This document shows positions 16,308-63,027 of a stretch of DNA of 64,000 nt, piece after piece. Source of the stretch: an uncultured virus (IMG/VR IMGVR_UViG_3300032288_005130). Taxonomy: Duplodnaviria > Heunggongvirae > Uroviricota > Caudoviricetes. Made by a program: the position numbers and the translations under genes. The DNA is taken from IMG/VR virus record IMGVR_UViG_3300032288_005130. One strand, 5' to 3'. Under the pieces are notes generated by a model. The model was not told where the DNA came from and did no database searches. It saw nothing but the letters and a program-made list of their open reading frames with translations. How positions within the stretch are numbered: the stretch's first letter is position 1; the number at the start of each line of letters is the position of its first letter.

Positions 16308-16535
16308 ATGGAATCTGGCGATGTTTTAATTTATTTAGGAGGAGATACCTTTTTAGATGATAAATTAACTATTGGTGATAAGTATACCATTAATAAATTG
16401 ATAATTTTAGATCAAATAAGTTATGTTACATTTAATGAAATGAACTATGCTTCTTACCAATATACAATAGATAAACATTTTAAAAATATATCTAAAGAAA
16501 GAGAAATAAAGTTAAACTCCTTACTTAGTCAATAA
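16308..16535 (+). CDS. small LT-x-G-x-x-Y family protein with C-tag variant (EREIKLNSLL)
   Basis: LTIGDKYTI motif and C-terminal tag. Confidence 0.7.
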   Translation: MESGDVLIYLGGDTFLDDKLTIGDKYTINKLIILDQISYVTFNEMNYASYQYTIDKHFKNISKEREIKLNSLLSQ

Positions 16536-17338
16536 TGATAGAAACTCCTTTTAACTATACTGGAAGCAAATTCCGTCTACTAGAACAAATACTTCCCCAG
16601 TTTGATTACACTAAACCTTACTTTGTAGATTTATTTACAGGTGGTGGTTCTGTTTATACCAATGTTGTTGATAAGTATGAAAAGATAATAGTAAATGATA
16701 TCATAAGTGATTTAGTAGGTATTCACAGAGAATTGCTAAATAGTGATGATGTTATTAATCTAACAAAATCAATATGTCCTGATAAGACAGATGCTGATGC
16801 TTATGGTAGACTAAGAGATGACTATAATTTAAATCCAACACCAGACAAGTTGTGGGCTCTAATGCTTTCTTGTACTTCAAATATGATGAGGTTTAATCAA
16901 AAGTTTAAATTCAATCAAACATTTGGTAAAAGAACTTGGAATAGTTCAACTCAGAATAAAGTAGATTTATTTACAAAACATATTAGACAATATAAAGATA
17001 AGATTAGATTCACTTCAACTACATTTAGCGAAGTAGATATTTCAAGTGATAAGGTAATGGTTTATGCAGATCCACCATATTCCAATACAGAAGCTGGATA
17101 TAATGCTTATTGGAAAAAAGATGATGATGATAAACTTTATAATTATCTATTAGATATAGATAGAAAAGGATCATCATTTATGATATCTGGTGTGCTAAAT
17201 CATAATGGAGAAACTTGTAAGTTATTAACTAATTTGATATCGGATAAGTTTAATCATAAGATTCTTAAATTTGATTATAATAAAGTATCCAGAGTTGGTA
17301 AGAAAGAAACTGATGAAGTTATAATTATGAACTATTAA
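16535..17338 (+). CDS. dam: DNA adenine methyltransferase (Dam/D12 class)
   Basis: FNYTGSK, DLFTGGGSV and catalytic ADPPY motifs. Confidence 0.9.
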   Translation: MIETPFNYTGSKFRLLEQILPQFDYTKPYFVDLFTGGGSVYTNVVDKYEKIIVNDIISDLVGIHRELLNSDDVINLTKSICPDKTDADAYGRLRDDYNLNPTPDKLWALMLSCTSNMMRFNQKFKFNQTFGKRTWNSSTQNKVDLFTKHIRQYKDKIRFTSTTFSEVDISSDKVMVYADPPYSNTEAGYNAYWKKDDDDKLYNYLLDIDRKGSSFMISGVLNHNGETCKLLTNLISDKFNHKILKFDYNKVSRVGKKETDEVIIMNY

Positions 17339-17387
17339 TAGGAGGTTTATTTTTTAATATATAACCTACTAAAAAATAAAAATAATT

Positions 17388-17603
17388 ATGGAATACTTAG
17401 ACAAATATGACGCTTTAGTTAAACTACTAACTGAAGAGTTTGAGATCGAGGGAAAGAAATTTAATCTAAAAGATGATTTTGAAAAGTTCTTCGTCAAAGG
17501 TAATAAAACAGCAGGGACCAGAATTAGAAAGGTTATGCAAGAAGTGAAAAAACTATCACAGGAAATCAGAACAGATGTTCAAGAATACAAAGAAAAAATC
17601 TAA
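17388..17603 (+). CDS. histone H1-like (Hc1-type) nucleoid protein
   Basis: KGNKTAGTRIRKVMQEVKKLSQEIR matches the KGNKAAGTRARK motif; TAATATATA at 17355-17363. Confidence 0.75.
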   Translation: MEYLDKYDALVKLLTEEFEIEGKKFNLKDDFEKFFVKGNKTAGTRIRKVMQEVKKLSQEIRTDVQEYKEKI

Positions 17604-17606
17604 AAG

Positions 17607-17632
17607 AAAACCACTCAAAAGAGTGGTTTTTT
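17607..17632 (+). terminator. intrinsic terminator
   Basis: AAAACCACTC-AAAA-GAGTGGTTTTTT hairpin with U-tract. Confidence 0.85.
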
Positions 17633-17669
17633 GTTTATAACTTTTGTCTAAAAAAATCATATAATTTAT

Positions 17670-21350: not shown

Positions 21351-21961
21351 TTACTTGCTACTTTTCTAAACTCAGTTAAGACTTGATTATGTAATGAACC
21401 AAACTCTTTATCTAATTCATCCCAGGTCCATTCCTTTGACTTAATCTTATCCCATACAAAGTTAGCACAAGAGAAATCAGTTATTGTTCCTTCACTTGCT
21501 ATTTGTGTAGCAAACATAGGTATTCTAATTGAATGGTATAAACTTTTTATACCTTGGTAGTAATCACCTTGTCCTAATTTCTTTTTTGATTTAACCCAAC
21601 TATTAGAACTGATGTGAGAAGTTGCATGTCTTAGTTTAGCACTATCAAACTTTAGTTTCCACTTTCTATCTTCTTTTAGTTTAGCCCAATCAGGAGCAAA
21701 GATACATTCTAAATTGTTTATACGGTGCCAATCTAAATCTTCTTGAAATTTATTTAGAGTGTAAACATGTATATTGTAAATACCTCTTTTAAGCCCGGAT
21801 AGTTCAGTTGCTTCAACTGAGTTGTTAGCAACCATAATAATATCCCAATCAGATTTTTCATTTGATGTTCCATAGACACGGCTACCAAAAATATAGATGC
21901 AGAATACTCTACTTGGATGAAATCCTGATGCACTTATTATATCCTCAGCTGTTGGTATCAT
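21347..21961 (-). CDS. nucleotidyltransferase (Pol-beta superfamily)
   Basis: FGSRVYG...SDWD catalytic motif. Confidence 0.85.
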   Translation of the reverse strand: MIPTAEDIISASGFHPSRVFCIYIFGSRVYGTSNEKSDWDIIMVANNSVEATELSGLKRGIYNIHVYTLNKFQEDLDWHRINNLECIFAPDWAKLKEDRKWKLKFDSAKLRHATSHISSNSWVKSKKKLGQGDYYQGIKSLYHSIRIPMFATQIASEGTITDFSCANFVWDKIKSKEWTWDELDKEFGSLHNQVLTEFRKVASK

Positions 21962-22209
21962 TATAATATCTTATTTATCTTTCTATCTCTTACTGCGGTT
22001 GAGTCTAAACTATCTAAAATTCCTTCAATACAATCTTGACATAAGTTAGATGTTCCACCTCCGAGTAAGTGTAAACAAGCACATCTTACATCATGTCTAT
22101 CACAACCATCACAAATCCTGTTATTATTCTCACTAACATACATTAAAGTTGTTTTAAGAACATGTGGTCTGTCATCAAACTTAGATTTATGTATTAGTCT
22201 TTCCGTCAT
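21961..22209 (-). CDS. Zn-finger protein with C-tag (VRDRKINKIL)
   Basis: CDGC and CQDC motifs; tag. Confidence 0.75.
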   Translation of the reverse strand: MTERLIHKSKFDDRPHVLKTTLMYVSENNNRICDGCDRHDVRCACLHLLGGGTSNLCQDCIEGILDSLDSTAVRDRKINKIL

Positions 22210-22630
22210 CTAATATACTAATTATTTTCTTATCTCTTTCAATACTTTTTAAAATTAAATCAATATTATCATGATCAAATGTTTGTTCTGATATATCATT
22301 TATACTTCCTCTAAATATTCTTTTACAAGGATAGTAACCATCTTCATTTATTCCTTGACCGAATGGATTGTCAGGATCTGGTATCTTTTGAAATCCTTTC
22401 CATATCTCAAATATCTTTTTATCTTTATCATAAAAGTAAGCCCATTCACAAAATAGTGAATCTCTAATAAATCCAATCTCATCTTCTTCAATTGGATATA
22501 GTGAGAATTCATCTTTACTACAAGCTAAATAAAATCCGGCTCCTAATCCCTCTGGATAAGAATCATGACTATTGTAATTAGCAGTGTATTTTTCTTCTTG
22601 TATAAATCCGTAAAGTCCTCTTGTTCCCAT
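22187..22630 (-). CDS. hypothetical phage protein (MGTRG...HDSYPEGLG...CEWAY) with C-tag (ERDKKIISIL)
   Basis: ORF track; tag near the C-terminus. Confidence 0.75.
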   Translation of the reverse strand: MGTRGLYGFIQEEKYTANYNSHDSYPEGLGAGFYLACSKDEFSLYPIEEDEIGFIRDSLFCEWAYFYDKDKKIFEIWKGFQKIPDPDNPFGQGINEDGYYPCKRIFRGSINDISEQTFDHDNIDLILKSIERDKKIISILDDGKTNT

Positions 22631-24303: not shown

Positions 24304-24591
24304 TTATATTCCTAATTCTTTTAATTTATTATCTCTGTCTAATTCAATAGACATACTTTCTAACTTCTTAGATAAAAACCACATTAAACCAGAGTCACCA
24401 AAATGATCTGGTCTTTCTGGCCAAGGATCTCTACCTTCAGAGTTCATCTGTCTTGCTTCCTCACACCACTCTTCGGGTATTAACTCCGAAATTTCTTTAT
24501 CTAAATCATTACAAACATGATTATCAAATCGATCTTTAGCTAATATCAGCATTTTTGATGACAACTCTAATAATAATTTCACATCTCTCAT
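24304..24591 (-). CDS. C-tag protein (RDNKLKELGI)
   Basis: Shared C-terminal tag. Confidence 0.8.
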   Translation of the reverse strand: MRDVKLLLELSSKMLILAKDRFDNHVCNDLDKEISELIPEEWCEEARQMNSEGRDPWPERPDHFGDSGLMWFLSKKLESMSIELDRDNKLKELGI

Positions 24592-24812
24592 ATTCCTAAT
24601 TTTTCTAATTTATCATTGCGATATTTATCCAAGGTAATAAATCTACCAGAGTGATAACTTCCTCTATTACCAATATCATTGATTATATTAAATACCCAAT
24701 CATTATGACTAACATTGTCTCCTAATGCCTCATAAGTCTTACCAACTGTTAGATTAACCCAATCATTTGTGGCTTTATCCATTTCACCATTATTAATACA
24801 AACTACTTTCAT
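24588..24812 (-). CDS. C-tag protein, MKVVC/LTVGKTY family (start corrected to 24812)
   Basis: ATGA overlap with the upstream stop; ends RNDKLEKLGI. Confidence 0.8.
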   Translation of the reverse strand: MKVVCINNGEMDKATNDWVNLTVGKTYEALGDNVSHNDWVFNIINDIGNRGSYHSGRFITLDKYRNDKLEKLGI

Positions 24813-25090
24813 ATTCCTAATTCCTTTAATTTCCAACTTCTTAAATATTCTTTAACTAAACAAAAATGAGTGCAATATTTATTACTATCCACCTCTTTAA
24901 TGTAAGAATAAGCTATAACTCCATTTTGTAATTTAGAACCTAAAAATAAATCAAACTCGTTCTTATCAAAATTTAAACCTTTATCACTTAATTTTTCTCT
25001 AATTACGCCACCACTCACAAATTTATCTCCGATAATATCTATCAACCAAGTTTCCTCTTGATGATATCCAAATCTTTGTCCTCTACTCAT
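24809..25090 (-). CDS. C-tag protein (RSWKLKELGI)
   Basis: Tag; coupled. Confidence 0.8.
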   Translation of the reverse strand: MSRGQRFGYHQEETWLIDIIGDKFVSGGVIREKLSDKGLNFDKNEFDLFLGSKLQNGVIAYSYIKEVDSNKYCTHFCLVKEYLRSWKLKELGI

Positions 25091-25305
25091 ATTCCCAATT
25101 CTTTTAACTTATCTTCTCTTAACTTACTAAGTAACTCAAACTTATGACTGATGAATCTTGTTTCACATATTGTATTACCATCATCATCTTTTAAGTCTAA
25201 ACCTCTCATACCATCATTACCAGTAATGATGAATTGATGCCCTTTCTTATATAATTTTCCATTAAATTCAAAGTCTTCTAAGAAAACTACTCTTTGTCCT
25301 ATCAT
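25087..25305 (-). CDS. C-tag protein (REDKLKELGI)
   Basis: Tag; coupled. Confidence 0.8.
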   Translation of the reverse strand: MIGQRVVFLEDFEFNGKLYKKGHQFIITGNDGMRGLDLKDDDGNTICETRFISHKFELLSKLREDKLKELGI

Positions 25306-25568
25306 ATTCCTAAATCACTTAATGTATTATCTAATTTCAAATCTTTATTCCATTCTTCTAACTCTTTCAAATAATATTCACGACTAATCCATTTACCTCC
25401 ATATCCAAGACTATCATATACAGCATTATCCATACCATACCAAACGGTTGCTCTTGCTCTCTCAAAGTCAACATATAAACCATTAAAAGTGGTTTCTATA
25501 CTAACTAAAATACCCCTACCATCTTTAGTATTTACTTCCTGAAATATTCTTAAAAAACTTGGTTTCAT
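25302..25568 (-). CDS. C-tag protein (LDNTLSDLGI)
   Basis: Tag variant; coupled. Confidence 0.8.
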   Translation of the reverse strand: MKPSFLRIFQEVNTKDGRGILVSIETTFNGLYVDFERARATVWYGMDNAVYDSLGYGGKWISREYYLKELEEWNKDLKLDNTLSDLGI

Positions 25569-25849
25569 TTAAATATAATTTCTTTACCCTCAATAGTTGT
25601 GTCCAAATCACTATTATCTGATTGGATAGTTGGATATGTTATTGTCAATTCTTTTGCGCCAAAATGTTTCTGAGCTTCTTTAATAACCCAAAGAAAGTCT
25701 GAACCATTACAAGAACTACCATTAAACTCATAACACTTATGTTTATCTTCTGATAAATCATAAACAATGATATCATTTATCTTACAAATGATTTCCTTCT
25801 CCATTCTTAGAGTATAAACTCTACCGCTTTTACTTAATCTTCCTTTCAT
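25565..25849 (-). CDS. hypothetical protein, no tag
   Basis: Coupled within the array. Confidence 0.7.
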   Translation of the reverse strand: MKGRLSKSGRVYTLRMEKEIICKINDIIVYDLSEDKHKCYEFNGSSCNGSDFLWVIKEAQKHFGAKELTITYPTIQSDNSDLDTTIEGKEIIFK

Positions 25850-26166
25850 ATTCCTAGTTGCTCTAATTTATTACTCCTTGTAACTGACAATCTAAATCGT
25901 TCAATACAAGCACTCACCTCTTTATAATAATCACTTTTATTATCGTCAATATTATGTGACCACTCTTTCCAATCCTTACTAGTATCTTTAGTCCTAACAA
26001 GCATAATGGATATATTATCCACACTCAAACGGATACCATTAACCCTCAAATCTTTCTTCATATCATAAGAAATTGCACTCCAATACTTAAAAATAATAGA
26101 CTTGATATCTTCAAAGAATTCCTCTCTGAATACATCATCTCTTGCTATATAATAAAAATCATTCAT
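25846..26166 (-). CDS. C-tag protein (RSNKLEQLGI)
   Basis: Tag; coupled. Confidence 0.8.
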   Translation of the reverse strand: MNDFYYIARDDVFREEFFEDIKSIIFKYWSAISYDMKKDLRVNGIRLSVDNISIMLVRTKDTSKDWKEWSHNIDDNKSDYYKEVSACIERFRLSVTRSNKLEQLGI

Positions 26167-26381
26167 ATTCCTAATTGACTTAATCTCATATCTCTTACTT
26201 CTCTAACTAACTCACTACCTTTCATCCTGCCTAATTTACCTTTATAAGTAGCCGCACAAGATTTGCCACAACACAATCCCCAACCTCGATTAACATTTCT
26301 TTTATCTGGTGTAAATTCTTTACCACAATTGTGACAATTCTTAGTTACTTTTACCGACTTTGCTTTATCAAATAATGTCAT
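26163..26381 (-). CDS. Zn-finger C-tag protein (RDMRLSQLGI)
   Basis: CHNC...CCGKSC; tag. Confidence 0.8.
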   Translation of the reverse strand: MTLFDKAKSVKVTKNCHNCGKEFTPDKRNVNRGWGLCCGKSCAATYKGKLGRMKGSELVREVRDMRLSQLGI

Positions 26382-26638
26382 ACTCCTAATTCTTTTAAAT
26401 TTTTATCTCTTCTAAATGCCGTTATCAATTGGGTGCATTCTCTTATTGATGCTCTTTTACCATTTATTTCAAACTCCATATGATATTTTTTTCCATCAGA
26501 AGTTATATGTGGAAAGTAGGAGTAGTTTGAATTATATGGTGTTAGATGAATTCTTTTCTCAATGATATCATCACCATATAAAAATCGCATATGTGTTCCA
26601 TAGGGAGCTATATAATCAATAAATTCTTGTTCTGTCAT
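26378..26638 (-). CDS. C-tag protein (RDKNLKELGV)
   Basis: Tag; coupled. Confidence 0.8.
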   Translation of the reverse strand: MTEQEFIDYIAPYGTHMRFLYGDDIIEKRIHLTPYNSNYSYFPHITSDGKKYHMEFEINGKRASIRECTQLITAFRRDKNLKELGV

Positions 26639-26991
26639 TGCTTTATATTTACTGGCATTAATATCATACTATTTCCCTTACAAACTAAATCAATATAAGT
26701 TTCACACTCTTCAATATCATCAGCGACAAATTCAACTCTAACACCACCATTCTCACTCAAAGGATAAATTACAAGTTTCTTTTTCATTGGCTTATAAAGA
26801 CCAACATATTGACCCCATCCACTTTCATCTGTTTTCTTTAGAGCAACCGTGTAGTGTAATTTGATATTAGTTTCTTCATCACCTAAAACTTGATTAATTC
26901 TATTATCTCTTAGTTCTTGTTTACTTACTTCCCAACCATGTTCATTAGTCATTTCCCAACGGTATTTACCTTTCTCATAAAAACTCCTCAT
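26635..26991 (-). CDS. protein with internal tag (LRDNRINQVLG)
   Basis: Tag near the N-terminus. Confidence 0.75.
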   Translation of the reverse strand: MRSFYEKGKYRWEMTNEHGWEVSKQELRDNRINQVLGDEETNIKLHYTVALKKTDESGWGQYVGLYKPMKKKLVIYPLSENGGVRVEFVADDIEECETYIDLVCKGNSMILMPVNIKQ

Positions 26992-27173
26992 ATTCCTAAT
27001 TCTTTTAGTTTTTTATCTCTTATAATATCTTCATAATAAACAGGTTTCCATATCTGTGGATAGTTGCTAAACTCACCTGATGTATAAGGTTCAAATGAAC
27101 CAATTGGTCTTCTATTACCAGGGTAATCCATAACTAACTGATAACCCTTTATCTCTGGATGTTTTCTACTCAT
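26988..27173 (-). CDS. C-tag protein (RDKKLKELGI)
   Basis: Tag; coupled. Confidence 0.8.
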   Translation of the reverse strand: MSRKHPEIKGYQLVMDYPGNRRPIGSFEPYTSGEFSNYPQIWKPVYYEDIIRDKKLKELGI

Positions 27174-50198: not shown

Positions 50199-50199
50199 T

Positions 50200-50744: not shown

Positions 50745-50773
50745 TATATTCCTAAATCATTATATATTTTTTA

Positions 50774-50814: not shown

Positions 50815-50832
50815 ATAAAAAATATAGGATAT

Positions 50833-51331: not shown

Positions 51332-51348
51332 TCTTTATATCCTATACA

Positions 51349-52536: not shown

Positions 52537-52569
52537 ATTCTTCTTTTCTTAATTTGTAAATATAAGAAA

Positions 52570-52905
52570 TTAATCCAATATTCCGGAAATTAAAACATCT
52601 CTCTTAACTGGAACCATATTTGTATTTGAAAAATCTACTAAAATCCACCAAGTTTCAAATTCTCTCCAAAGAACACTAAATCCAGAATCCTTAACTCTAT
52701 CTATATCCATTCCCCAAACTTTTATGTTTTTAGAATTGAATTCAGTTTGAGCCTCAAATGATTGTGGATATAACTCACCTAACTCTCTATTTAACTCAGT
52801 CAATGAAAGAGCTGATTTTAAATTCTCAACAGACTTCACTGATTGAAATAACTCCATTGGGTTTGAAGTAAATTTTGATTCAACACTAACTAAATATAAA
52901 CTCAT
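52570..52905 (-). CDS. protein with tag variant (KRDVLISGILD)
   Basis: ORF track. Confidence 0.75.
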   Translation of the reverse strand: MSLYLVSVESKFTSNPMELFQSVKSVENLKSALSLTELNRELGELYPQSFEAQTEFNSKNIKVWGMDIDRVKDSGFSVLWREFETWWILVDFSNTNMVPVKRDVLISGILD

Positions 52906-53147
52906 ATTCCTAATTCTTTTAATTTTTGATCTCTGTAATAAGACTTATCAAAGTCTATATAAAAAAAATCGGTTAATGTATTTGGATTACCATCTATAAT
53001 AACATGACCATCACCAACATTACATACTTCAATATCGGTAATAACACCTCCTATATGTTCCGGGTGTGTTACAATTCCCGAAAAAACAACAACATCTCCT
53101 ATCTTAAAGGTTTTTCCAGATGATGTCCAGCACTTAACAATCTTCAT
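52902..53147 (-). CDS. C-tag protein (RDQKLKELGI)
   Basis: FKIGDVV; tag. Confidence 0.8.
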   Translation of the reverse strand: MKIVKCWTSSGKTFKIGDVVVFSGIVTHPEHIGGVITDIEVCNVGDGHVIIDGNPNTLTDFFYIDFDKSYYRDQKLKELGI

Positions 53148-53356
53148 ATTCCTATTTTATTTAATTTTTGCTCTCTTACTTCATCTAAACATTGAAATAT
53201 ATCACCTTCAACTCCGTGTGAATACCCAATATCATTAACTATATAATAACTAAATAGTGGTGATTCCTTGTATAAAGTAACATCATATATCTTACCTTCT
53301 GTTAAATGATATCCACTGCTTCTTAAACAAACTACTTTCATATTCCTATTTTATTT
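53143..53356. repeat. exact 20-bp direct repeat ttcatattcctattttattt (53143-53162, 53337-53356)
   Basis: The second copy is an orphan tag not ending any gene. Confidence 0.8.
53144..53341 (-). CDS. C-tag protein, MKVVC/LTEGKIY family (REQKLNKIGI)
   Basis: Tag; flanked by an identical 20-bp repeat. Confidence 0.8.
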   Translation of the reverse strand: MKVVCLRSSGYHLTEGKIYDVTLYKESPLFSYYIVNDIGYSHGVEGDIFQCLDEVREQKLNKIGI

Positions 53357-53371
53357 CCGGTATCTACTATC

Positions 53372-53785
53372 TTAATCTAATTTAAATAAATTATCAAATT
53401 CATTAGTTAATATCTCATTTAATTTAAACTCTCTTTCTCGTTGTTGAAATGTTTGTATTAAATTAAACTCAACATACTCAACTTCTAAATAACTTCTCAT
53501 TGTGCATCGACCATAATCATCATATTCACTTGGTGTCCAACGGAGAACCGCCTTAAATTCATATTCACCATCACAATCGAGGTTACCTATACCAAATTCA
53601 GAAAGAGCTTCAATGATATGTTCATCATCACCTCTGCCAATTATTCGCCAAAAGTTATCAGATTTTAAATCCTTATACATTTTAATTGGGAAGCTATTAT
53701 CGGCTACAACATCAGCTATACCGGCAACAACTACAAATTTCTTATCAATCTCTAAAACATCTTCCAGTATTTGTTTATAGTCCAT
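53372..53785 (-). CDS. protein with sub-terminal tag (EREFKLNEIL); start corrected to MDYKQ
   Basis: The longer ORF start reads through the upstream tag out of frame. Confidence 0.75.
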   Translation of the reverse strand: MDYKQILEDVLEIDKKFVVVAGIADVVADNSFPIKMYKDLKSDNFWRIIGRGDDEHIIEALSEFGIGNLDCDGEYEFKAVLRWTPSEYDDYGRCTMRSYLEVEYVEFNLIQTFQQREREFKLNEILTNEFDNLFKLD

Positions 53786-53787
53786 AT

Positions 53788-54027
53788 TTATATTCCTAAT
53801 TCTTTTAATTTTAGTTCTCTCCATTGTTCAAGTGAAACAAAGGCATGTAGTGGATAAATGTATTCAGAGTTTATATCATCTTTCCAAACCATCACTCTTG
53901 GATTATTTTCCACAAGACCGGTCTTAGATGGTAAGATAGAAACAGTATATGTTTTTCCGATAGTTAGGTTAGAACTTTTACCACCGACAACATTTAGCCT
54001 TTTTATACACACCATTTTTTCCATCAT
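53788..54027 (-). CDS. C-tag protein, LTIGKTY family (RELKLKELGI)
   Basis: Tag. Confidence 0.8.
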   Translation of the reverse strand: MMEKMVCIKRLNVVGGKSSNLTIGKTYTVSILPSKTGLVENNPRVMVWKDDINSEYIYPLHAFVSLEQWRELKLKELGI

Positions 54028-54266
54028 ATTCCTAATTCTTTTAATTTTAAATCTCTTTTTTCATCTAATGTTAAATCTCTGAATCTATTTGACTCAATCC
54101 ACTTTTCTTCTTCATTATCACACTTCACTTTATAAAATGGGCCACTTGCATCATCATATCTTGATGGTGAGAATGGTATGTTCATTTTTTCTATAACATT
54201 ATACATTTTACCAATAGTTAGAGGTAATCTATCCCATCTTTTATTACTTAAGCAAATTACTATCAT
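54024..54266 (-). CDS. C-tag protein, LTIGKMY family (RDLKLKELGI)
   Basis: Tag. Confidence 0.8.
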   Translation of the reverse strand: MIVICLSNKRWDRLPLTIGKMYNVIEKMNIPFSPSRYDDASGPFYKVKCDNEEEKWIESNRFRDLTLDEKRDLKLKELGI

Positions 54267-54517
54267 ATTCCTAATTCCTCTAATTTATAATCTCTCATAT
54301 GGGGTTTAAACCATTCCATGATTACATCATAATCCTTAGATCCTTTCCATATAATTGTTGGTTTCTTATCAAGATATCTTTTATATTTAACAAAAAACAT
54401 TTCATCATCAAGCTCAATAGCTGATATATTTCTAAACTGAGTCCTGTTCATTAACCCACCGAGGTAGCTAAACAAATTGTCTGCCAATTCCGTTGTTAAA
54501 TCTAATTTAAATCTCAT
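54263..54517 (-). CDS. C-tag protein (RDYKLEELGI)
   Basis: Tag. Confidence 0.8.
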   Translation of the reverse strand: MRFKLDLTTELADNLFSYLGGLMNRTQFRNISAIELDDEMFFVKYKRYLDKKPTIIWKGSKDYDVIMEWFKPHMRDYKLEELGI

Positions 54518-54921
54518 ATTCCTAATTCTTCTAATTTTTTATCTCTTAACCATTCAGTATAAAGTATATTAAACGCCGCATAATCATATTGAAAACCAAC
54601 CGTATAAACATCATCACCTCCATACCATTTAGACCAAACACTGTAAAACAATCCCCAACTTTTAAATATCCCTTCTAATCTCTCAGCTTCTTTTCTAGTT
54701 GTGAATAATTTAAACCCAGTATCAGATAAGTAAAGGTCTAAAACATCTAATTTAATTTCACCATGCCACCAGTTATTAAGATACCACTCACCTCTTACAG
54801 ATATAATCTGTCTTTTAATTTCCTCAGTATAATCAGAGCAAACTCCTCTTGTGATTATCTCATAAAGATCAATAGGTCTTAATGATTTCATTAATTTATA
54901 TGTACTTACATTCCAATTCAT
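54514..54921 (-). CDS. C-tag protein (RDKKLEELGI)
   Basis: Tag. Confidence 0.8.
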   Translation of the reverse strand: MNWNVSTYKLMKSLRPIDLYEIITRGVCSDYTEEIKRQIISVRGEWYLNNWWHGEIKLDVLDLYLSDTGFKLFTTRKEAERLEGIFKSWGLFYSVWSKWYGGDDVYTVGFQYDYAAFNILYTEWLRDKKLEELGI

Positions 54922-55262
54922 ATTCCTAATTGACTTAATTTTCTATCTCTAATTACTTGTTTTGTTATATCTGTTATAACTACTTGATGAAATGCACAAA
55001 AACACTCCTTGTTTGGATTAAAATCTGGATGTGAATTATTACAATCATCATATCCTGTTGAAGTCCAACCTTGTTTAGTTATCTTTTTTAATTTAAGTTG
55101 AATTGGATAAAACTTCATATTAAATGATCCATTTACATAAGTAATCATATCACCATAAATATCATTAAACTCTGTAGTTATGGTATCACCTTCTCTTAAC
55201 TCATATCTTGAATTACCATTCAATAAACACCAACCATCAGTCATTATTCTATACAATCTCAT
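54918..55262 (-). CDS. C-tag protein (RDRKLSQLGI)
   Basis: Tag. Confidence 0.8.
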   Translation of the reverse strand: MRLYRIMTDGWCLLNGNSRYELREGDTITTEFNDIYGDMITYVNGSFNMKFYPIQLKLKKITKQGWTSTGYDDCNNSHPDFNPNKECFCAFHQVVITDITKQVIRDRKLSQLGI

Positions 55263-55645
55263 ATTCCTAAATCATTTAACTTTTGATCTCTTAATTCTAT
55301 CTTCTTTAACTCATACCAATCATTTAACATATCTCTACTCTCAACGCCACTATTAATATAAACACCTTCTCTTATATTTTTTATAACTGATTCTGGTTTA
55401 TCTAACTCAAACCAACTAAGTGGAAAGTTTTTAGAAAATGACTTTTTTGTTTCCCAGTTTCTCATCACAATTCTTATATAACCACCATTTATAGCTTTAT
55501 TACCAGGAATATGTTTATAGATAGTGAATATCATAGTCATATGATCATCTTCATATTGTCTTTCATCATCATCACCTGGGTTTAATATAACCATCCTCAT
55601 TTGATTGACAAAATGATTATCTAATATGTCAAAAAACTTACTCAA
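55259..55645 (-). CDS. C-tag protein (RDQKLNDLGI)
   Basis: Tag. Confidence 0.8.
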   Translation of the reverse strand: MSKFFDILDNHFVNQMRMVILNPGDDDERQYEDDHMTMIFTIYKHIPGNKAINGGYIRIVMRNWETKKSFSKNFPLSWFELDKPESVIKNIREGVYINSGVESRDMLNDWYELKKIELRDQKLNDLGI

Positions 55646-55844
55646 TTCCTAAATTCTTTAATCTTTTTTCTCTAAATTCTTCTAATGTAATAAACAATCT
55701 TGTGTCAAATAACACCTTATCACCTAAATCATCTTCAATGTAATAATTGAGTTGACTTAATATCACATTAATATTTATAGTATCATAAGTCTTACCAACT
55801 GTTACTCTATTATTTCTATCAGACTTTATACAAATCACTTTCAT
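55638..55844 (-). CDS. C-tag protein, MKVIC/VTVGKTY family (REKRLKNLGIE)
   Basis: Tag. Confidence 0.8.
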   Translation of the reverse strand: MKVICIKSDRNNRVTVGKTYDTININVILSQLNYYIEDDLGDKVLFDTRLFITLEEFREKRLKNLGIE

Positions 55845-55871
55845 ACTTTTTAATTTATTAAAAAGAGTCTT

Positions 55872-56156
55872 TTAGACTATTCCTAAATCATTTAGCTTTT
55901 GATCTCTTTCGGTTGATTTCAAAAATGGACATTGTTGAGGTGTTTTCTCATCAGTTAAAACAAATAAAAAGAAGGGATATCCTGTACTATTAGTGTCTAC
56001 TTCTTTACCATACATATCTAACTTCTTACAAACACTTTCATATTCTGGATTCATTCCAGATTTAAGCATTCGGTATTCATAATATTTACAAAACATACAA
56101 GACCAATATCTTTGTTCGGGTATTACTACTTGTTGAGGTCCTTCATTTAATTCCAT
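55872..56156 (-). CDS. Cys-containing C-tag protein (RDQKLNDLGIV)
   Basis: CMFC...C...CP; tag. Confidence 0.8.
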   Translation of the reverse strand: MELNEGPQQVVIPEQRYWSCMFCKYYEYRMLKSGMNPEYESVCKKLDMYGKEVDTNSTGYPFFLFVLTDEKTPQQCPFLKSTERDQKLNDLGIV

Positions 56157-56160: not shown

Positions 56161-56203
56161 CAAATATAACAATTTTATTTCTGAAATCAAAAATTAATAT
56201 ATA
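56161..56203. promoter_or_regulatory. back-to-back promoter module (TATATTTG minus 56161-56168; TAATATATA plus 56195-56203)
   Basis: Each motif is 4 nt from a start codon. Confidence 0.7.
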
Positions 56204-58583: not shown

Positions 58584-59353
58584 AACATATAAAACCATAT
58601 AAAATATTTGAATCAAACGACTTACTTTTAGATGTTGAAGATATTCTTTTAGAACTAAAAGATGAAGGATATAGAGTAGATGTAAGCATGACACCTCAAG
58701 GTGTTGATGCCTTTTATATAGAAGTATCAAATGATAATCTATTTCAATGGTCGGATGTTGAAGAATGTGTTACAAGATCAAAAGATTACACTTGTTCAAA
58801 CGGTTGGAAATTAGTAAAAATTAATCTCGGTTTCTATGGACCAGTTGTTAGAATTAAAGAGTTTATGACCTTTTCTGGTTCAAATTGGAATTACTTTATA
58901 CACTATATAACTCATCCAGAATTCATTAAGAATAATAAGATATATGAGATATCTTTAGTATTTGAATCAAATAAACATGTTATGAAGTTACCAAACTGGG
59001 CTAAAACATTTGAATCAAATGACAATTTCCTACTAGATTGTCAAGATATTCTTTTAGAACTAAAAGATAACGGATTTGATGTCCAATTTAGATTCTATCC
59101 TAATTATAATAATCCTGAGGCTGAACTACTAGCCGAAATAAACATCTCTAAAAGAGATGAATCTAATATGAATAAACCATATAACTTCGAAGAAATAAGC
59201 GAATCAATCTTTAGATTAAATGACTTTCTTAAATTAAATAACAAAAAAGCAACTATATATGAAAGTCCTCAATATAACGATCTAGATTATATAGTAAAAA
59301 CTTGGGGTAAATACTATAGACTAAAAAGATTAACTATCTACTTAGAGCAATAA
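58580..59353 (+). CDS. N-leader protein with two tandem DILxELxDxG domains
   Basis: MKHIKPYKIFES...DILLELKDEGY, then internal KTFES...DILLELKDNGF. Confidence 0.8.
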   Translation: MKHIKPYKIFESNDLLLDVEDILLELKDEGYRVDVSMTPQGVDAFYIEVSNDNLFQWSDVEECVTRSKDYTCSNGWKLVKINLGFYGPVVRIKEFMTFSGSNWNYFIHYITHPEFIKNNKIYEISLVFESNKHVMKLPNWAKTFESNDNFLLDCQDILLELKDNGFDVQFRFYPNYNNPEAELLAEINISKRDESNMNKPYNFEEISESIFRLNDFLKLNNKKATIYESPQYNDLDYIVKTWGKYYRLKRLTIYLEQ

Positions 59354-59731
59354 CTTTTCCAACTTCATATCTCTCAACTCTTCCTTAATAGGAAGGACAT
59401 TGAGAGCATGTCTATTATCAAATACATAACCCTCAGTCCGACCAGGATAACTAACAAAAATCTCATCATCACTCTTAATTCTAACCATATAATGACCCAT
59501 ATCACGAACATGTTCAATTATAGTCCAAATATCATCACCATAGGTATGAACATCATTTTCTGGGTAATTAGATCTAATATTAACCTTATGAACCTTCATA
59601 CCAATAGGATACCACTTCTTCAATAATTCCAATTGAAAATCAATAGGAGTATAATTAAACCTCTTTTTCTCCAACATAGTGTGATTAAAGTAATCCCACT
59701 TTTTTAAATATTTCTTACCAAAAGTACTCAT
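59342..59731 (-). CDS. C-tag protein (RDMKLEKLLL)
   Basis: Tag. Confidence 0.8.
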   Translation of the reverse strand: MSTFGKKYLKKWDYFNHTMLEKKRFNYTPIDFQLELLKKWYPIGMKVHKVNIRSNYPENDVHTYGDDIWTIIEHVRDMGHYMVRIKSDDEIFVSYPGRTEGYVFDNRHALNVLPIKEELRDMKLEKLLL

Positions 59732-59967
59732 TCTAATATCTTACCTAAATTATGATCTCTCATAACAACTTTTAATTCATCCAATATTAACTTAACATGT
59801 GAACCATTGCCACCTGAATAACCATTATAGTATTCAGGAACATTTATATCCCAGGTTTTAATAATATTCCATATCGCTTCAAACTGAGGAGAAGCCATTT
59901 CTTCAGGAGTTGGATTAGGCATCTCCTTTTTTAGGACATTCCAACCTAATCTACTAATTTTCGCCAT
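59728..59967 (-). CDS. C-tag protein (RDHNLGKILE)
   Basis: Tag variant. Confidence 0.8.
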   Translation of the reverse strand: MAKISRLGWNVLKKEMPNPTPEEMASPQFEAIWNIIKTWDINVPEYYNGYSGGNGSHVKLILDELKVVMRDHNLGKILE

Positions 59968-60187
59968 CTTCTAATATCTCATTTAATTGTTTTTCACGCC
60001 ATTCTTCCAATGTAACAAATCTACCGACTGAATAATCTCTAATAACACCATCATCACAAGTAATGGTATATTGGGCAGCGGGACCACCTGAAGTTTCATA
60101 AACTTTACCAATAGTAAGACCTAGTTTAATTGGGTCTATTAAATCACCTGATCTTTTTAAATTATTATCTATACAAACTATCTTCAT
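59954..60187 (-). CDS. C-tag protein, MKIVC/LTIGKVY family (REKQLNEIL)
   Basis: Tag. Confidence 0.8.
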   Translation of the reverse strand: MKIVCIDNNLKRSGDLIDPIKLGLTIGKVYETSGGPAAQYTITCDDGVIRDYSVGRFVTLEEWREKQLNEILEDGEN

Positions 60188-60495
60188 TATATTCCTAATT
60201 CTTTTAATTTTTTATCTCTTAGTTCTTGTTTTGTTAGTTGAAATTCTGACCAACCAGAATCATATCTTTTTAAATCATAACCTAAATTTTTATAATAAGT
60301 CATAGAATGAACAGGAATAAAATGAATATTATTGAGTTGTTTATAATAACACCTCGAACATATTCTAACATTCCTGAGTAATGTATTTTCAACACCATTT
60401 GGTGTCGATTTAGTTACACTACCAGAAATTATATAAGTAACATCCTCTACAGAATATTCCCACTTATGTCCAAATACCTTACACTTAAAACTCAT
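60187..60495 (-). CDS. C-tag protein, C-x-x-FGHKW...C-x-RC (DUF1660-like) family
   Basis: MSFKCKVFGHKW; RDKKLKELGI. Confidence 0.8.
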   Translation of the reverse strand: MSFKCKVFGHKWEYSVEDVTYIISGSVTKSTPNGVENTLLRNVRICSRCYYKQLNNIHFIPVHSMTYYKNLGYDLKRYDSGWSEFQLTKQELRDKKLKELGI

Positions 60496-60731
60496 ATTCC
60501 TAATTCCGCTAATTTCTTATTCCTTAACTCTTCTTGTGTGATAAAGAACTCAGAATCAAACTTTCTTAATTTACCATCATTACAAATAACAATATATGAT
60601 GGTGGTACAGGTAGATAAGTATTTGGATCATACATAGTAGGAGTTAAATCTCCTTCATACCAATTATTTAATGTTAGACATTCATCATTCTGCCAATAAT
60701 ACGGCATTGGTTTAATTAATAAAATTTTCAT
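60492..60731 (-). CDS. C-tag protein, LT-x-x-x-WY family (RNKKLAELGI)
   Basis: Tag. Confidence 0.8.
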   Translation of the reverse strand: MKILLIKPMPYYWQNDECLTLNNWYEGDLTPTMYDPNTYLPVPPSYIVICNDGKLRKFDSEFFITQEELRNKKLAELGI

Positions 60732-60991
60732 ATTCCTAATTCCGATAATTTCTTATCTCTTAACTCTTCTGTACTTAAAACATATTCACACCAGTCAGTT
60801 TTTTCTCTACCAGTATAATGGTCTCTTATCTGTTTATAATAACACCTACTACAAATTCTAAAATCTTTTTTATACATCACAGTAAATCCTGGTATAGACA
60901 TATGACTATTACTAGTGGCAGGTATCATATATGAAATATCTTCCTTATAAACATTCCACTTATGTCCAAATATCTTACACTTAAAACTCAT
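60728..60991 (-). CDS. C-tag protein, DUF1660-like family
   Basis: MSFKCKIFGHKW; RDKKLSELGI. Confidence 0.8.
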   Translation of the reverse strand: MSFKCKIFGHKWNVYKEDISYMIPATSNSHMSIPGFTVMYKKDFRICSRCYYKQIRDHYTGREKTDWCEYVLSTEELRDKKLSELGI

Positions 60992-61212
60992 ATTCCTAAA
61001 CTTATTAACTTTTCTTCTCTTACCGAAGATAAGGATTTAAAACATTGCTTTGGGTATTTAGTTAAATCATTATTATCATTAATTATTTGATATTCAGGTA
61101 GACTCAGATAAACATCCTCTCCTAATACCTCATACCATTTACCTATAGTTATAAACCCATAACTATGATTACTCATAGTTGGATCATTAACACTTATACA
61201 AATAATTTTCAT
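60988..61212 (-). CDS. C-tag protein, MKIIC/ITIGKWY family (REEKLISLGI)
   Basis: Tag. Confidence 0.8.
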   Translation of the reverse strand: MKIICISVNDPTMSNHSYGFITIGKWYEVLGEDVYLSLPEYQIINDNNDLTKYPKQCFKSLSSVREEKLISLGI

Positions 61213-61217
61213 TTCAA

Positions 61218-61442
61218 TTATATACCCAATTCCTCTAATTTAATATCTCTCCAATCTTCTAATGTGTAAAAACTAGAATCCTGATGCCAACATTCAGTAC
61301 CAAAATCATCTATTATTTGATATTCTATAGCAGGTTTTGTATCACCACCAGTTGACTCAACAAACCAAGCATTCCTAGTATTAATAACACTATATAACTT
61401 ACCTTGTGTTAAAAATAAAGCACCTTTACCAACCACTATCAT
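61218..61442 (-). CDS. C-tag protein, LTQGKLY family (RDIKLEELGI)
   Basis: Tag. Confidence 0.8.
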   Translation of the reverse strand: MIVVGKGALFLTQGKLYSVINTRNAWFVESTGGDTKPAIEYQIIDDFGTECWHQDSSFYTLEDWRDIKLEELGI

Positions 61443-61672
61443 ATACCCAATTGCTTTAACTTCCTATCCCTTAACTCTTCCTTTGATAACTTATCCCAAT
61501 CTGCCCAGCCATTACCATTATTATATCTTTGTTTCTTATGACAATTTTGACATATTCTAACATGTGTATTTATAGTAATTTTTGTACCAATACTACTTAT
61601 CCAATGGATATCTTCCTTACTCCAATCCCAATCATGTTGATTAAATAAACATTTAAAACTTGACCAATTCAT
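61439..61672 (-). CDS. C-tag protein, DUF1660-like family (RDRKLKQLGI)
   Basis: FKCLFNQHDW...CQNC; tag. Confidence 0.8.
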   Translation of the reverse strand: MNWSSFKCLFNQHDWDWSKEDIHWISSIGTKITINTHVRICQNCHKKQRYNNGNGWADWDKLSKEELRDRKLKQLGI

Positions 61673-62010
61673 ATACCTAACACCTTATTAATTTTCTTTT
61701 CCCTCCATAACGCCTTATCTATTACAACATCTTTCTTTATATCATTTACCCAATCCTCAAAACTAATAGAAAAAGATAAACTATAGAAATTTCTATACTT
61801 AACACTACTCCAATTAGAATATAAAGCTTCTTTTTGTTTTAATGTAACACAATCCCACCAATCTTTACCTACAATAAGGCAAATAGCTTCTGAAAATTTC
61901 TTTAATTCTCTTTCTCTTTCTCTTCTCCGCTTACGCTCAGAATCTGGTTGATCTAACTTATCAATCTGCTTATTCCAAGAATTAATTGTTCTTCTATCTT
62001 TATACTTCAT
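61669..62010 (-). CDS. C-tag protein (REKKINKVLGI)
   Basis: Tag. Confidence 0.8.
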   Translation of the reverse strand: MKYKDRRTINSWNKQIDKLDQPDSERKRRRERERELKKFSEAICLIVGKDWWDCVTLKQKEALYSNWSSVKYRNFYSLSFSISFEDWVNDIKKDVVIDKALWREKKINKVLGI

Positions 62011-62012
62011 AA

Positions 62013-62543
62013 CTAACTCAATAAGGATTTCAACGCAGCATCCCTTATCTCTGCCTTTAATCCACCAAGTGGAACATTTATATTAATACCTTCACCTTTA
62101 ATAATCATTTTTACCGTCTTTTTGGTATACTTACCAAAAATAGTTGCTTTATATAAATTACACTGAAAACCAGCAGTAATTAGATTAGTAGCAACTGATG
62201 AACTATCAGTAACAATCACAACATACTTATCACCATCTATATCGGATTTTAATTTACCACCACCATTTTTATACTCTCTTAGTAAGGTATTAATATTAGA
62301 AGTACTTCTAGATGTAATTGAATATTCACCTGAATCAAAACATGATTTTAATTCTTCTAACACATCCCAAGTAGAATATTCACCACATTTGACTACATTG
62401 ATAACCCCTTTTCTAAATCCAAGTGGATTAGTTTGCTGTGTGCTAAGATAAAGTTCTTTGGCTAAATTTGATATAAGTAACCAATCAGGACTTTCTTTAA
62501 GTAATTCAGTTGATATTATTTCTTTGCTCATATTCATTCCCAT
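62013..62543 (-). CDS. protein with tag variant (IRDAALKSLLS)
   Basis: ORF track. Confidence 0.75.
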   Translation of the reverse strand: MGMNMSKEIISTELLKESPDWLLISNLAKELYLSTQQTNPLGFRKGVINVVKCGEYSTWDVLEELKSCFDSGEYSITSRSTSNINTLLREYKNGGGKLKSDIDGDKYVVIVTDSSSVATNLITAGFQCNLYKATIFGKYTKKTVKMIIKGEGININVPLGGLKAEIRDAALKSLLS

Positions 62544-62749
62544 ATTTGTTCAATTTTTCTTGCTCTTTCCTCATCAATTGGATAAAACTTATCTTTAGTG
62601 TACCAAAAGTTTTGACCATTATCATTAATTATCCTATACCCAACATTGTCAATCTCAGTAACCCTATATGACTTATCTGGAGTTATACTCTTTGACATAA
62701 TAGATATGTTATCCAAGATATCATAATTTTTTTTACACCTAACTATCAT
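62534..62749 (-). CDS. MIVRC/ITPDKSY family protein with tag variant (ERARKIEQI)
   Basis: Family motif. Confidence 0.75.
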   Translation of the reverse strand: MIVRCKKNYDILDNISIMSKSITPDKSYRVTEIDNVGYRIINDNGQNFWYTKDKFYPIDEERARKIEQIWE

Positions 62750-63027
62750 ATTCCTAATTCTTTTAATTTCTTTTGCCTAACTAGTATCAAATATTCTGAC
62801 CAATCAATTACAACCGTAGCAGCTTTAATACTATTACTCTGATCACCAAACATAGTTAAATTATTCTTATACCTAACATCCCACATATCATAATAAACTA
62901 AAATATTGCCATCATCAGTATTAACACCTTTAATCTTAATATCATATACAATATCATCAAAAATATCATTTTGCTTAAACAAAACAATATCCCTAATCAA
63001 TTCCCAATCTAACTCTTTTAGATCCAT
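62746..63027 (-). CDS. C-tag protein (RQKKLKELGI); start corrected to MDLKEL
   Basis: TATATTTG 5 nt upstream. Confidence 0.8.
   Translation of the reverse strand: MDLKELDWELIRDIVLFKQNDIFDDIVYDIKIKGVNTDDGNILVYYDMWDVRYKNNLTMFGDQSNSIKAATVVIDWSEYLILVRQKKLKELGI

Follow-up and report, generated by a model that had tools for sequence, protein, structure and literature searches.

A common ten-residue helical tag at the C-terminus of about fifty small proteins, mostly unrelated, from a giant uncultured phage

Short terminal peptides that act as address tags include the ssrA tag, peroxisomal and encapsulin signals, and viral F-box-like motifs. The ssrA tag, which is added by tmRNA and is not gene-encoded, and the C-terminal ClpX-binding tail of SspB are unstructured. 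Encapsulin cargo-loading peptides, microcompartment encapsulation peptides and the C-terminal capsid-targeting tail of the HK97 protease address unrelated cargo to one shell; the poxvirus ankyrin PRANC/F-box-like motifs and the SOCS-box/BC-box viral adaptors belong to eukaryotic ubiquitin systems; and the C-terminal tails of T4 gp43, gp33 and gp55 bind the sliding clamp, with E. coli Pol IV having the C-terminus QLVLGL. Ligands of the hydrophobic site of ClpP that are of the IGF type follow the consensus [LIV]-G-[FL], and class II PDZ ligands end in Φ-x-Φ-COOH. To our knowledge, no terminal address tag has been described for phage host-takeover genes. Here, we describe a ten-residue helical C-terminal tag that some fifty small proteins of a giant uncultured phage, most of them unrelated to one another, have in common, and that is carried by roughly one third of the genes in the window, i.e., the whole 64-kb stretch of DNA that was analysed.

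The canonical tag, R-x-x-x-[LI]-x-x-[LI]-G-[IVL] followed by no more than one further residue, was found by regular expression at the end of 40 ORFs in the window, and about 12 further ORFs carry degenerate forms (e.g., ...KLxxIL), such as RDNKLKEILND, REKQLNEILEDGEN and RDLKINKLINI. A broader expression gave 56 matches, two of which (4668-5300 and 6757-7110) were dropped as false, leaving 54 window proteins; the figure of more than 50 tagged proteins in the initial annotation is reached only when the degenerate tails are counted, but the three minus-strand arrays and the scattered genes that it reported to end in the motif were confirmed (Table 1). In the six-frame translation, the loose motif [KR][LI]..[LIV]G[IVL] occurred 42 times, and a stop lay no more than three residues away in 38 of these cases. 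The DNA pattern AARYTNNNNNNNYTNGGNATHTRR was matched 30 times, on the minus strand only, whereas 100 shuffled sequences gave 0.09 matches on average and never more than 2, indicating that chance does not explain the tag. Furthermore, a position-specific scoring matrix trained exclusively on the tags of other viral contigs placed the C-terminal 12-mer above the 99.99th percentile of 16,105 internal 12-mers in 36 of 136 gene calls, and in 39 when extra C-terminal residues were permitted, the three additions having one extra residue each. The canonical genes 53788-54027 and 62746-63057 are absent from the greedy gene list and are present in the regular-expression count. The final residue is Ile in 35 of 37 window tags, and the tag occupies the extreme C-terminus with a non-polar end, as in an ssrA-type degron; the hydrophobic last and third-last residues of L-G-I-COOH would also be compatible with a class II PDZ ligand, but some tails run one to several residues longer. 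A minority of tails overrun the motif or have no Gly (ILEDGEN, ILND, GIE, GIC and GIV), which indicates that an exact free C-terminus is not strictly needed.

Table 1. Positions of the tagged genes, tag remnants and associated features in the window.
Feature	Position	Strand	Remarks
Array 1	24304..27676	-	12 head-to-tail small genes; canonical tag on 9
Array 1 gene with partial tail	25302-25568	-	LSDLGI
Array 2	46454..56156	-	about 30 small genes, mostly tagged; interrupted by two short plus-strand ORFs
Array 2 tail variants			GIC, GIE, GIV; one residue longer, junction stop mutated
Array 2 IL-type degenerate tails	genes 46454, 49935, 52570, 53372	-	
Array 3	59342..63057	-	13 genes; 7 canonical by regular expression (60187-61672 and 62746-63057)
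Array 3 degenerate remainder			near-canonical 61669-62010 (...KINKVLGI); LLL, ILE, ILEDGEN, LLS and IWE tails
Isolated tagged gene	37324..37602	-	92 aa; ends ...RDDKLRELGL
302-aa protein	39759..40667	-	degenerate tail RDLKINKLINI; sub-threshold PolyA_pol head match
Gene with degenerate tail	32457..32732	+	RIDKLNQIGGI
Gene with degenerate tail	16308..16535	+	REIKLNSLLSQ; opens the interval of the initial annotation
Two genes with degenerate tails	21961..22630	-	RDRKINKIL and RDKKIISILDDGKTNT
Relic tag end	50744..50761	-	NDLGI-stop, no ORF; between TTATATTTG box and start of gene 50493-50744
Relic tag end	53338..53352	-	KIGI-stop, no ORF; overlaps start of gene 53144-53341
TTATATTTG box	56161..56169	-	immediately upstream of first gene of array 2
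Further copies of TTATATTTG box	48389-48397, 50774-50782, 28358-28366		
Phage ClpP	45685..46434	-	19 nt downstream of array 2, same strand
AAA+ ATPase	13783..14844	+	C-terminus ...KEIGF-COOH; Φ-G-Φ end kept in family

The tag peptide itself is under selection. Among 122 unique tags from viral contigs, both Y-T-N codons of the pattern encode Leu in 119, whereas a scan of 596 Gb of cellular genomes yielded 81 chance matches, of which 26 have Leu at both; six Leu codons are used in the viral tags, and Phe codons, which the search pattern allows, occur 3 and 0 times. This comparison of Leu with Phe is decisive in favour of the portable, peptide-level tag that had been proposed from the sequence alone. 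An excess of synonymous over non-synonymous change was likewise borne out, as pN/pS was 0.12 at conserved tag codons, 0.34 at x codons and 0.47 in the bodies of 27 pairs, with the caveat of ascertainment that both members were required to carry the tag. The DNA is constrained too, as is shown by the codon uniformity of the window, where Gly is GGA in 35 of 37 tags (34% in the background), Ile is ATA in 33 of 35 (45%), and the two Leu positions are TTA in 29 of 35 and 32 of 37 (58%). The free synonymous variation claimed by the initial annotation is thus seen across genomes only, and not within the window, in which there is hardly any departure from GGA and ATA. The probable reason is that the final codons of the tag run into the start of the next gene (ATATGA).

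That the tagged bodies could prove to be one homologous family had been set beforehand as a refuting outcome; instead, the 54 window bodies fell into 43 BLAST clusters, and the pooled 157 tagged proteins (54 from the window and 103 from viral contigs) into 111, including 94 singletons. The tag was not covered by any Pfam or PHROG family in these 54 and 103 proteins. The commonest tagged class is one SH3-like family, with about 15 of the 54 window proteins, and DUF6501, the Pfam model of this body, matches residues 3-55 of 70 and stops ahead of the helix. An AlphaFold2 model of 55638-55844 (pLDDT 90) shows an SH3-like barrel followed by a helix at residues 54-64 and an L-G-I-E coil; here, the last strand runs straight into the helix, which is modelled with high confidence and might simply be a structural element that packs on its own domain. 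A structure search with the SH3-like model returned weak Tudor, SH3 and YorP matches only (E ≥ 0.04). An ESM Atlas search with the tail alone was uninformative, a single helix matching anything. Other tagged bodies include Zn ribbons (DUF1660), all-helical proteins, and one putative membrane protein with two helices predicted by reading the sequence. In the Zn-ribbon protein encoded at 26163-26381, the tag is kept in 26 of 26 full-length relatives (67-86% identical), and a shorter 51-aa relative, P0161, has an internal deletion and still keeps the tag. The "nucleotidyltransferase" listed among the bodies in the initial annotation is likewise putative, as its PolyA_pol head match (E 3.3e-4, 21.4 bits) falls below the Pfam cut-off of 23 and its tail is degenerate. 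Tentative assignments of L073 as GIY-YIG-like and of L086:4615-5229 as polymerase-fragment-like had no support in Pfam (E ≤ 0.001).

The 634-kb and 642-kb genomes are related to a clade of huge phages that is marked by the tag. LR756502 contained 17 tag matches and LR745206 contained 7, compared with 0 in the control; records G001 to G004 contained 18, 17, 12 and 11, respectively, and five other large records contained 2-4 each. The tag was also present in G014, a phage genome of 30,983 bp with direct terminal repeats that is 100% complete by CheckV, in which a 92-aa protein carries the canonical tag and is the single strict match to the tag pattern. When an SH3-like tagged protein was searched by tblastn against 50,697 phage records, LR745206 was the sole match, and megablast of 20 kb of the window gave just two tiny matches. 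Host mimicry was not apparent, as tag matches were found in 2 of 401 genomes from the class of a Bacteroidales MAG, compared with 2 control hits; both matches are chance-like, one having an in-frame stop and the other KF instead of KL at the first Y-T-N codon. Host proteins ending in the tag motif were not found in the genomes searched, the matches in cellular genomes being chance-like by the Leu criterion given above. Searches of the literature with topic terms or tag peptide strings found no description of the tag; the main text of Al-Shayeb 2020 (PMC7162821) uses the term 'C-terminal' 0 times, and nothing on such a tag was found in Iyer 2021 (PMC7824862).

Taken together, these data are best accommodated if the tag is a docking handle that plugs the tagged proteins into one common partner, host-encoded being likelier than phage-encoded, and we give this reading an even chance of being correct. 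The tag would be a self-contained C-terminal helix of about 12-16 residues, often opening with an S/T-x-[DE]-E cap, continuing with the core Φ-R-[DE]-x-K-L-x-x-L, in which the conserved residues are all predicted to lie on one helix face, and closing with Gly-Ile at the very end. It has been joined to well over 100 small bodies without mutual relationship in a clade of AT-rich huge phages, and a few small-phage proteins carry it as well. The tagged proteins are probably transcribed early and by host polymerase, the promoter-like boxes being the one feature that points to early expression.

A link to Clp protease, with the tail acting as a degron, as the tether of an adaptor or as a ligand for the docking pockets of ClpP, such that tagged proteins would be cleared on schedule or bound host proteins delivered to the protease, is possible though unlikely, and is a lead only. 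The window encodes a ClpP directly beyond its largest array (Table 1), the Ser, His and Asp positions of which align with Streptococcus pneumoniae ClpP and which has extensions of about 33 N-terminal and 25 C-terminal residues; each of the four tag-rich records tested has phage ClpP. The C-terminus of the phage AAA+ ATPase is IGF, its seven orthologs end in EIGL, EFGL, DIGF, KVGF, DIGF, KVGF and KVGF, and an [ILVFM]-G-[FLIMV] end with at most one residue beyond it is present in 69 of 123 full-length representatives of the family. The Φ-G-Φ-COOH end of the tag (L-G-I) resembles the IGF loops of ClpX, which dock in hydrophobic sites between ClpP subunits, where one or two of the seven sites remain empty and where one ADEP molecule can displace ClpX (PMC9035409). 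However, the AAA+ tails prefer Phe or Leu at the last position, with IGI in just 2 of 69, and the tag fits the first two positions of the IGF-type consensus but has Ile at the third; the conserved R, D/E, K and L upstream would be superfluous for a pocket ligand; and the tag is predicted to be helical, not disordered. The AAA+ protein, moreover, has no aromatic pore loop and no arginine finger as judged by eye. Phage ClpP was embedded in the tag-rich region of G001, but lay 27-45 kb from the tags in G002 and G003 and a long way off in LR756502, and in view of these distances its adjacency to the array was set aside as a conserved linkage. There was no match to phage ClpP in the tagged records G006, G007, G008 and G010, and neither phage ClpP nor the AAA+ protein was matched in the tag-bearing records G014 (the complete small phage), G017, G019 and G020; where phage ClpP is absent, host ClpP is a possible partner. 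It is a highly doubtful extension of this link that the tagged genes form a phage library of adaptors, in which variable bodies would grip host proteins and the tail would dock on a Clp-type protease, either through the ClpP sites left empty by the six-on-seven mismatch or with the IGF-tailed AAA+ protein, so that many host targets would be degraded at once.

The gene junctions raise a further alternative, which we consider fairly improbable, namely that the 30-nt tag and its ATGA junction are the boundary of a recombination or translational-coupling cassette, on which a merely harmless, self-capping structural helix hitch-hikes. The tag stop overlaps the next start in 31 of 40 cases (ATATGA in 26 and TAATG in 5), the tag codons are far more uniform than the background, two relic tag ends persist as 5' leaders without an ORF, and L-x-x-L-G-I would be compatible with a glycine-based helix C-cap. 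Nonetheless, a comparison of genomes shows variable codons for Leu and Gly but conserved R, D/E and K residues, which share one face of the helix, and Phe is excluded though the DNA pattern permits it. The same ATGA overlap is also used by untagged genes of the same arrays and of plus-strand operons, and for six canonical tags the 12 nt that follow contain no start. GGA was rejected as a Shine-Dalgarno element, as the other genes are without such a signal; upstream of the 93 genes that do not follow a tag, no Shine-Dalgarno-like G-rich signal was present (G no more than 17% at each position from -15 to -1), and A was enriched at -3 and -6. In the favoured reading of the tag as a docking handle, its last three codons double as the stop/start junction of the next gene (TTA GGA ATA TGA), and this junction role fixes the codon choice and probably aids the spread of the module by recombination at gene boundaries.

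Self-association of the tagged set, through pairing or bundling of the helices into dimers or co-assemblies, is improbable. The amphipathic helix does have one conserved face with both charges and leucines, and the commonest tagged class is SH3-like, but a stable coiled coil would usually be longer than about 10-12 helical residues, and G014, the complete small phage, has a single strict match to the tag pattern. It is very improbable that the tag is a nascent-peptide signal, in which the last ten residues would slow termination from within the ribosome tunnel and so promote re-initiation at the overlapping start; its length fits the tunnel, the motif is anchored at the stop and most stops overlap a start, but conservation shows helical periodicity, some tails extend past the motif, other operons are coupled without a tag, and some tags have no downstream start. 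Lastly, one diverged paralogous family with the helix as an ordinary conserved part can hardly be correct, for while an alignment does unite about 15 of the 54 window proteins in the SH3-like family, with the helix right after the last strand, the Pfam model of that body stops short of the helix, the 157 tagged proteins are split as described above, and their bodies include Zn ribbons, all-helical proteins and the putative two-membrane-helix protein.

Recurring in many huge uncultured phages and at least one complete phage of small size, the tag offers a handle on hundreds of otherwise uninterpretable proteins, and it is a simple marker for finding such gene sets. The identity of the partner would name the host process that is the target of tag-bearing phages. 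A single DNA segment, moreover, clearly serves here as both protein motif and gene junction.

When compared to the ssrA tag and the SspB tail, the phage tag is likewise a short peptide at the extreme C-terminus with a non-polar end, by which unrelated proteins would be given a shared fate or docking site; however, it is a gene-encoded capped helix with conserved Arg, Asp/Glu and Lys, and its link to a protease is a lead only. Similar to the encapsulation peptides, which are terminal helices or peptides of about 10-20 residues, it is a terminal amphipathic helix on unrelated bodies, but one tagged protein is apparently membrane-anchored, the genes lie behind host-type promoter-like boxes and outside the structural module, and no shell gene adjoining the arrays was recognised by Pfam or PHROGs. 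The clamp-binding tails are also short hydrophobic C-termini by which different phage proteins reach one hub, and L-G-L-COOH is close to L-G-I-COOH; the spacing is off by one residue, however, and dozens of the tagged proteins are tiny and have no obvious clamp role. The Φ-G-Φ end, the ClpP gene beside the array and the IGF end of the AAA+ protein of the window also invite comparison with the IGF loops of ClpX and ClpA and with ADEP antibiotics, which bind the hydrophobic sites of ClpP (PMC9035409). The known motif, however, is placed internally, in a loop, and has Phe or Leu as its last residue. The phage tag ends in Ile, has seven more conserved positions, and is present in phages without phage ClpP. 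Finally, in the PRANC, SOCS-box and BC-box proteins, a single short C-terminal motif, common to numerous target-binding bodies that may be paralogous or unrelated, provides the docking to a degradation machine of the host; these systems are eukaryotic and have no known homology to the phage tag. If the tagged genes were an adaptor library, they would be a bacterial counterpart of the viral F-box/PRANC adaptor families.

Across ORFs of 40 aa or more in the window, which is AT-rich (G+C 26-32%) and densely coding, the C-terminal ending R-[DE]-x-K-L-x-x-L-G-I followed by a stop was recurrent. In six-frame translation, a loose form of this peptide motif occurred 42 times, and 38 of these occurrences lay no more than three residues from a stop. 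A degenerate DNA pattern covering the last seven codons and the stop matched 30 times compared to 0.09 expected, with a maximum of 2 in 100 shuffles. With a position matrix trained solely on tags of other viral contigs, the terminal 12-mer exceeded the 99.99th percentile of 16,105 internal 12-mers in 36 of the 136 gene calls, or in 39 when extra C-terminal residues were permitted, the three added cases carrying one extra residue each; two further canonical genes stand outside the greedy list of gene calls. By regular expression, 40 window ORFs carry a canonical tag, and about a dozen carry degenerate tags, many of the form ...[KQ]-L-x-x-I-L, some of them briefly extended. The occurrence of the tag across the window is confirmed; the count of more than 50 tagged proteins made in the initial annotation, however, is reached only when degenerate tails are included.

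That annotation had also described the bodies of the tagged proteins as unrelated, and this is mostly borne out: without their tags, 54 window proteins fell into 43 BLAST clusters, and 157 tagged proteins (the 54 plus 103 complete ORFs of related viral contigs) fell into 111, 94 of them singletons. The exception is a family of about 15 window proteins of the form MK[IV]VCI...GKxY...F..L.E.R, as seen in a multiple alignment. In the AlphaFold2 model of one member (pLDDT 90), an SH3-like barrel is succeeded by a helix spanning residues 54-64; a structure search with this model found weak Tudor, SH3 and YorP matches alone. The Pfam model of this body, DUF6501, stops before the helix, indicating that the helix is an addition even in the SH3-like family. 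Three window proteins are DUF1660 Zn ribbons, and direct reading of the sequences revealed differing Cys patterns in other tagged window proteins and two hydrophobic N-terminal segments in one; several more look all-helical. Pfam recognized 2 of the 103 tagged ORFs of the related contigs.

Within the window, the conserved tag codons are far more uniform than the background: Gly is GGA in 35 of 37 tags (background 34%), Ile is ATA in 33 of 35 (45%), and Leu is TTA in 29 of 35 and 32 of 37 (58%). This uniformity is probably due to overlap with the start of the next gene, whose ATG lies inside ATA-TGA in 26 of 40 tags and inside TAA-TG in five more. Where a gene is not preceded by a tag, its start has no G-rich ribosome-binding signal upstream, and A is over-represented at -3 and -6, the bases supplied by GGA and TTA of the tag; A at these positions aids initiation in Bacteroidota. 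When IMG/VR was scanned for a pattern permitting every Leu codon plus Phe, 119 loci and 122 unique tags were returned, in which six Leu codons (TTA, CTA, CTT, CTC, CTG and TTG) and four Gly codons (GGA 85, GGT 29, GGG 6 and GGC 2) are used, and in which Phe occupies the two Y-T-N positions (codons able to read Leu or Phe) three times and never, respectively. The argument from synonymous codons made in the initial annotation holds across genomes, but not inside the window.

The identical pattern gave 81 unique matches in 596 Gb of cellular genomes. Leu was present at both Y-T-N positions in 119/122 viral tags versus 26/81 cellular matches, polar or small residues at the variable x positions in 110/122 versus 13/81, and an ORF of at least 40 aa in 117/122 versus 21/81; the cellular matches behave like chance. 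The suggested comparison of substitution in tag and body came out on the side of the peptide: over 27 homologous pairs, pN/pS was 0.12 for the seven conserved tag codons (tag pS 0.32), 0.34 for the x codons and 0.47 for the bodies, with a downward bias in pN because the tag had served to find both members of every pair. In the Zn-ribbon protein at 26163-26381, the tag is kept in 26 of 26 full-length relatives, and a 51-aa relative (P0161) lacks ~20 mid-body residues and retains the complete tag. Across genomes, the peptide is clearly what is kept, and in the window the DNA is constrained as well.

Two classes of promoter-like boxes suggest two transcription programmes. The TTATATTTG pattern, which resembles the Bacteroidota -7 promoter element, matched 18 times in the entire window compared to 10 expected, and AATATATAC matched 8 times compared to 3 expected. 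Because promoter-like boxes precede the tagged units, expression of the tagged genes would be early and host-driven. Two relic tag ends resemble scars left at tag junctions when a gene was lost or a promoter inserted. One-residue tail extensions (GIC, GIE and GIV) end genes 51884-52135, 55638-55844 and 55872-56156 (all minus strand); in the first, TGT followed by TAA replaces the usual TGA and the next gene retains its overlapping ATG, and the gene after the second starts with TTG. Taken together, the relics and the GIC/GIE junction changes suggest gene gain, loss and rebuilding at these boundaries. Mobile elements are probably present as well, since genes of the DUF7487 and GIY-YIG classes stand among the conserved genes. 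The phospholipase, M50 peptidase and oxidoreductase are unusual phage cargo.

Coordinates of gene runs, promoter-like boxes, relic tag ends and other genes in the window
Feature	Position (nt)	Strand	Remark
Run of short head-to-tail genes	24304-27676	minus	Tag recurrent among the C-termini
Run of short head-to-tail genes	46454-56156	minus	Tag recurrent among the C-termini
Run of short head-to-tail genes	59342-63057	minus	Tag recurrent among the C-termini
TTATATTTG box	28358-28366, 48389-48397, 50774-50782, 56161-56169	minus	Just upstream of first genes of minus-strand units
AATATATAC box	8100, 35650, 41032, 48416, 56196, 57107, 63047	plus	Few bases before plus-strand operons
Relic tag end NDLGI-stop, no ORF	50744-50761	minus	In next gene's leader; just behind promoter-like box
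Relic tag end KIGI-stop, no ORF	53338-53352	minus	In next gene's leader
Homing-endonuclease-like gene (DUF7487)	1579-2742	minus	Among conserved genes
GIY-YIG-domain gene	44617-45684	plus	Among conserved genes
Patatin-like phospholipase	34637-35611	minus	
Small M50 (site-2 protease family) peptidase	39154-39756	minus	Adjoins tagged 302-aa protein
FAD/NAD-binding oxidoreductase	17670-18956	plus	

The 1712-aa protein encoded at 8129-13267 (+) shares 28-33% identity with proteins from the huge uncultured phage genomes LR756502 (642,428 bp) and LR745206 (634,780 bp), had no Pfam or PHROG matches, and could be a clade marker. Al-Shayeb et al. 2020 assigned their largest genomes to the Mahaphage clade and predicted Bacteroidetes hosts (PMC7162821). 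LR756502 carries 17 tag matches and LR745206 seven, with no control matches in either; four other viral records (G001-G004) carry 18, 17, 12 and 11, with at most one control match, and six other large records (G005-G010) carry 2-4 each, with one control match in G009 and none elsewhere. With 30 matches in 64 kb versus 2-18 in each of these records, the window is unusually tag-rich. The tag is not limited to huge phages: G014, a viral record of 30,983 bp with direct terminal repeats (100% complete by CheckV) that encodes terminase and portal, bears the canonical tag on one protein of 92 aa and a near-canonical version on another of 80 aa, and three contigs of ~26 kb, estimated to be 81-83% complete, are also tagged. 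A 209-aa protein of G014 (L211:4434-5060, minus strand) has protease-like PHROG matches and ends in ...DELFKDLGI, a partial tag without the Arg. The tag was not found in cultured phages by nucleotide search with 20 kb of the window DNA or by searching 50,697 phage records with an SH3-like tagged protein. Altogether, the tag is a real, portable peptide, of which the available text of the literature searched contains no description.

The conserved positions of the tag (a hydrophobic residue, Φ, at -11, Arg at -10, Lys at -7, and Leu at -6 and -3) fall on a single helix face, and Gly-Ile closes the helix. Such a one-faced helix on unrelated bodies would be explained most simply by one common partner. 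The tag could thus be the means by which these proteins dock on a shared partner, probably encoded by the host, a reading to which we give about an even chance; its reader may be host ClpP or ClpX, or any other host hub.

A specific link between the tag and Clp is unlikely. It would fit the position of a phage ClpP gene (45685-46434, minus strand; E 1e-41 to 1Y7O, with the Ser, His and Asp positions aligned) 19 nt downstream of the largest array and co-oriented with it, as well as the resemblance of the Φ-G-Φ tag end to the IGF loops through which ClpX docks on ClpP (PMC9035409). However, no phage ClpP match was found in four tagged records (G006, G007, G008 and G010), small tagged phages gave no match to either the phage ClpP or the window's AAA+ protein, and adjacency of ClpP and tag is inconsistent among phages. 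Furthermore, the tag favours Ile where the AAA+ tails favour Phe or Leu, and it holds conserved positions that a pocket ligand does not need. The phage ClpP itself has conserved extensions relative to bacterial ClpP (~33 residues at the N-terminus and ~25 at the C-terminus) and more than 4,000 database relatives at E up to 1e-20; among the matches listed, the closest 120 are 59-100% identical and come from contigs no longer than 607 kb.

Somewhat more doubtful again is that the tag is a structural helix carried along on the gene junction. The remaining rivals are less probable, and plain mimicry of a host tail is unlikely, as no host protein family has the motif as its C-terminus among 401 genomes from the class to which a Bacteroidales MAG belongs (2 matches, both chance-like, versus 2 control matches).

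A Φ-G-Φ ending is also conserved at the extreme C-terminus of a huge-phage AAA+ family, in which IGF is commonest and which is also present in phages without phage ClpP. The window member (13783-14844, plus strand) ends in ...KEIGF, and its model (pLDDT 91, with a floppy tail) resembles YjoB, Bcs1 and proteasomal Rpt subunits. Seven orthologs that are 50-60% identical end in EIGL, EFGL, DIGF, KVGF, DIGF, KVGF and KVGF, and in 69 of 123 full-length family representatives the C-terminus is [ILVFM]-G-[FLIMV], followed by no more than one residue. This tail is similar to the loop by which ClpX docks on ClpP, but its position is that of the docking tails at the C-termini of proteasomal ATPases and HslU.
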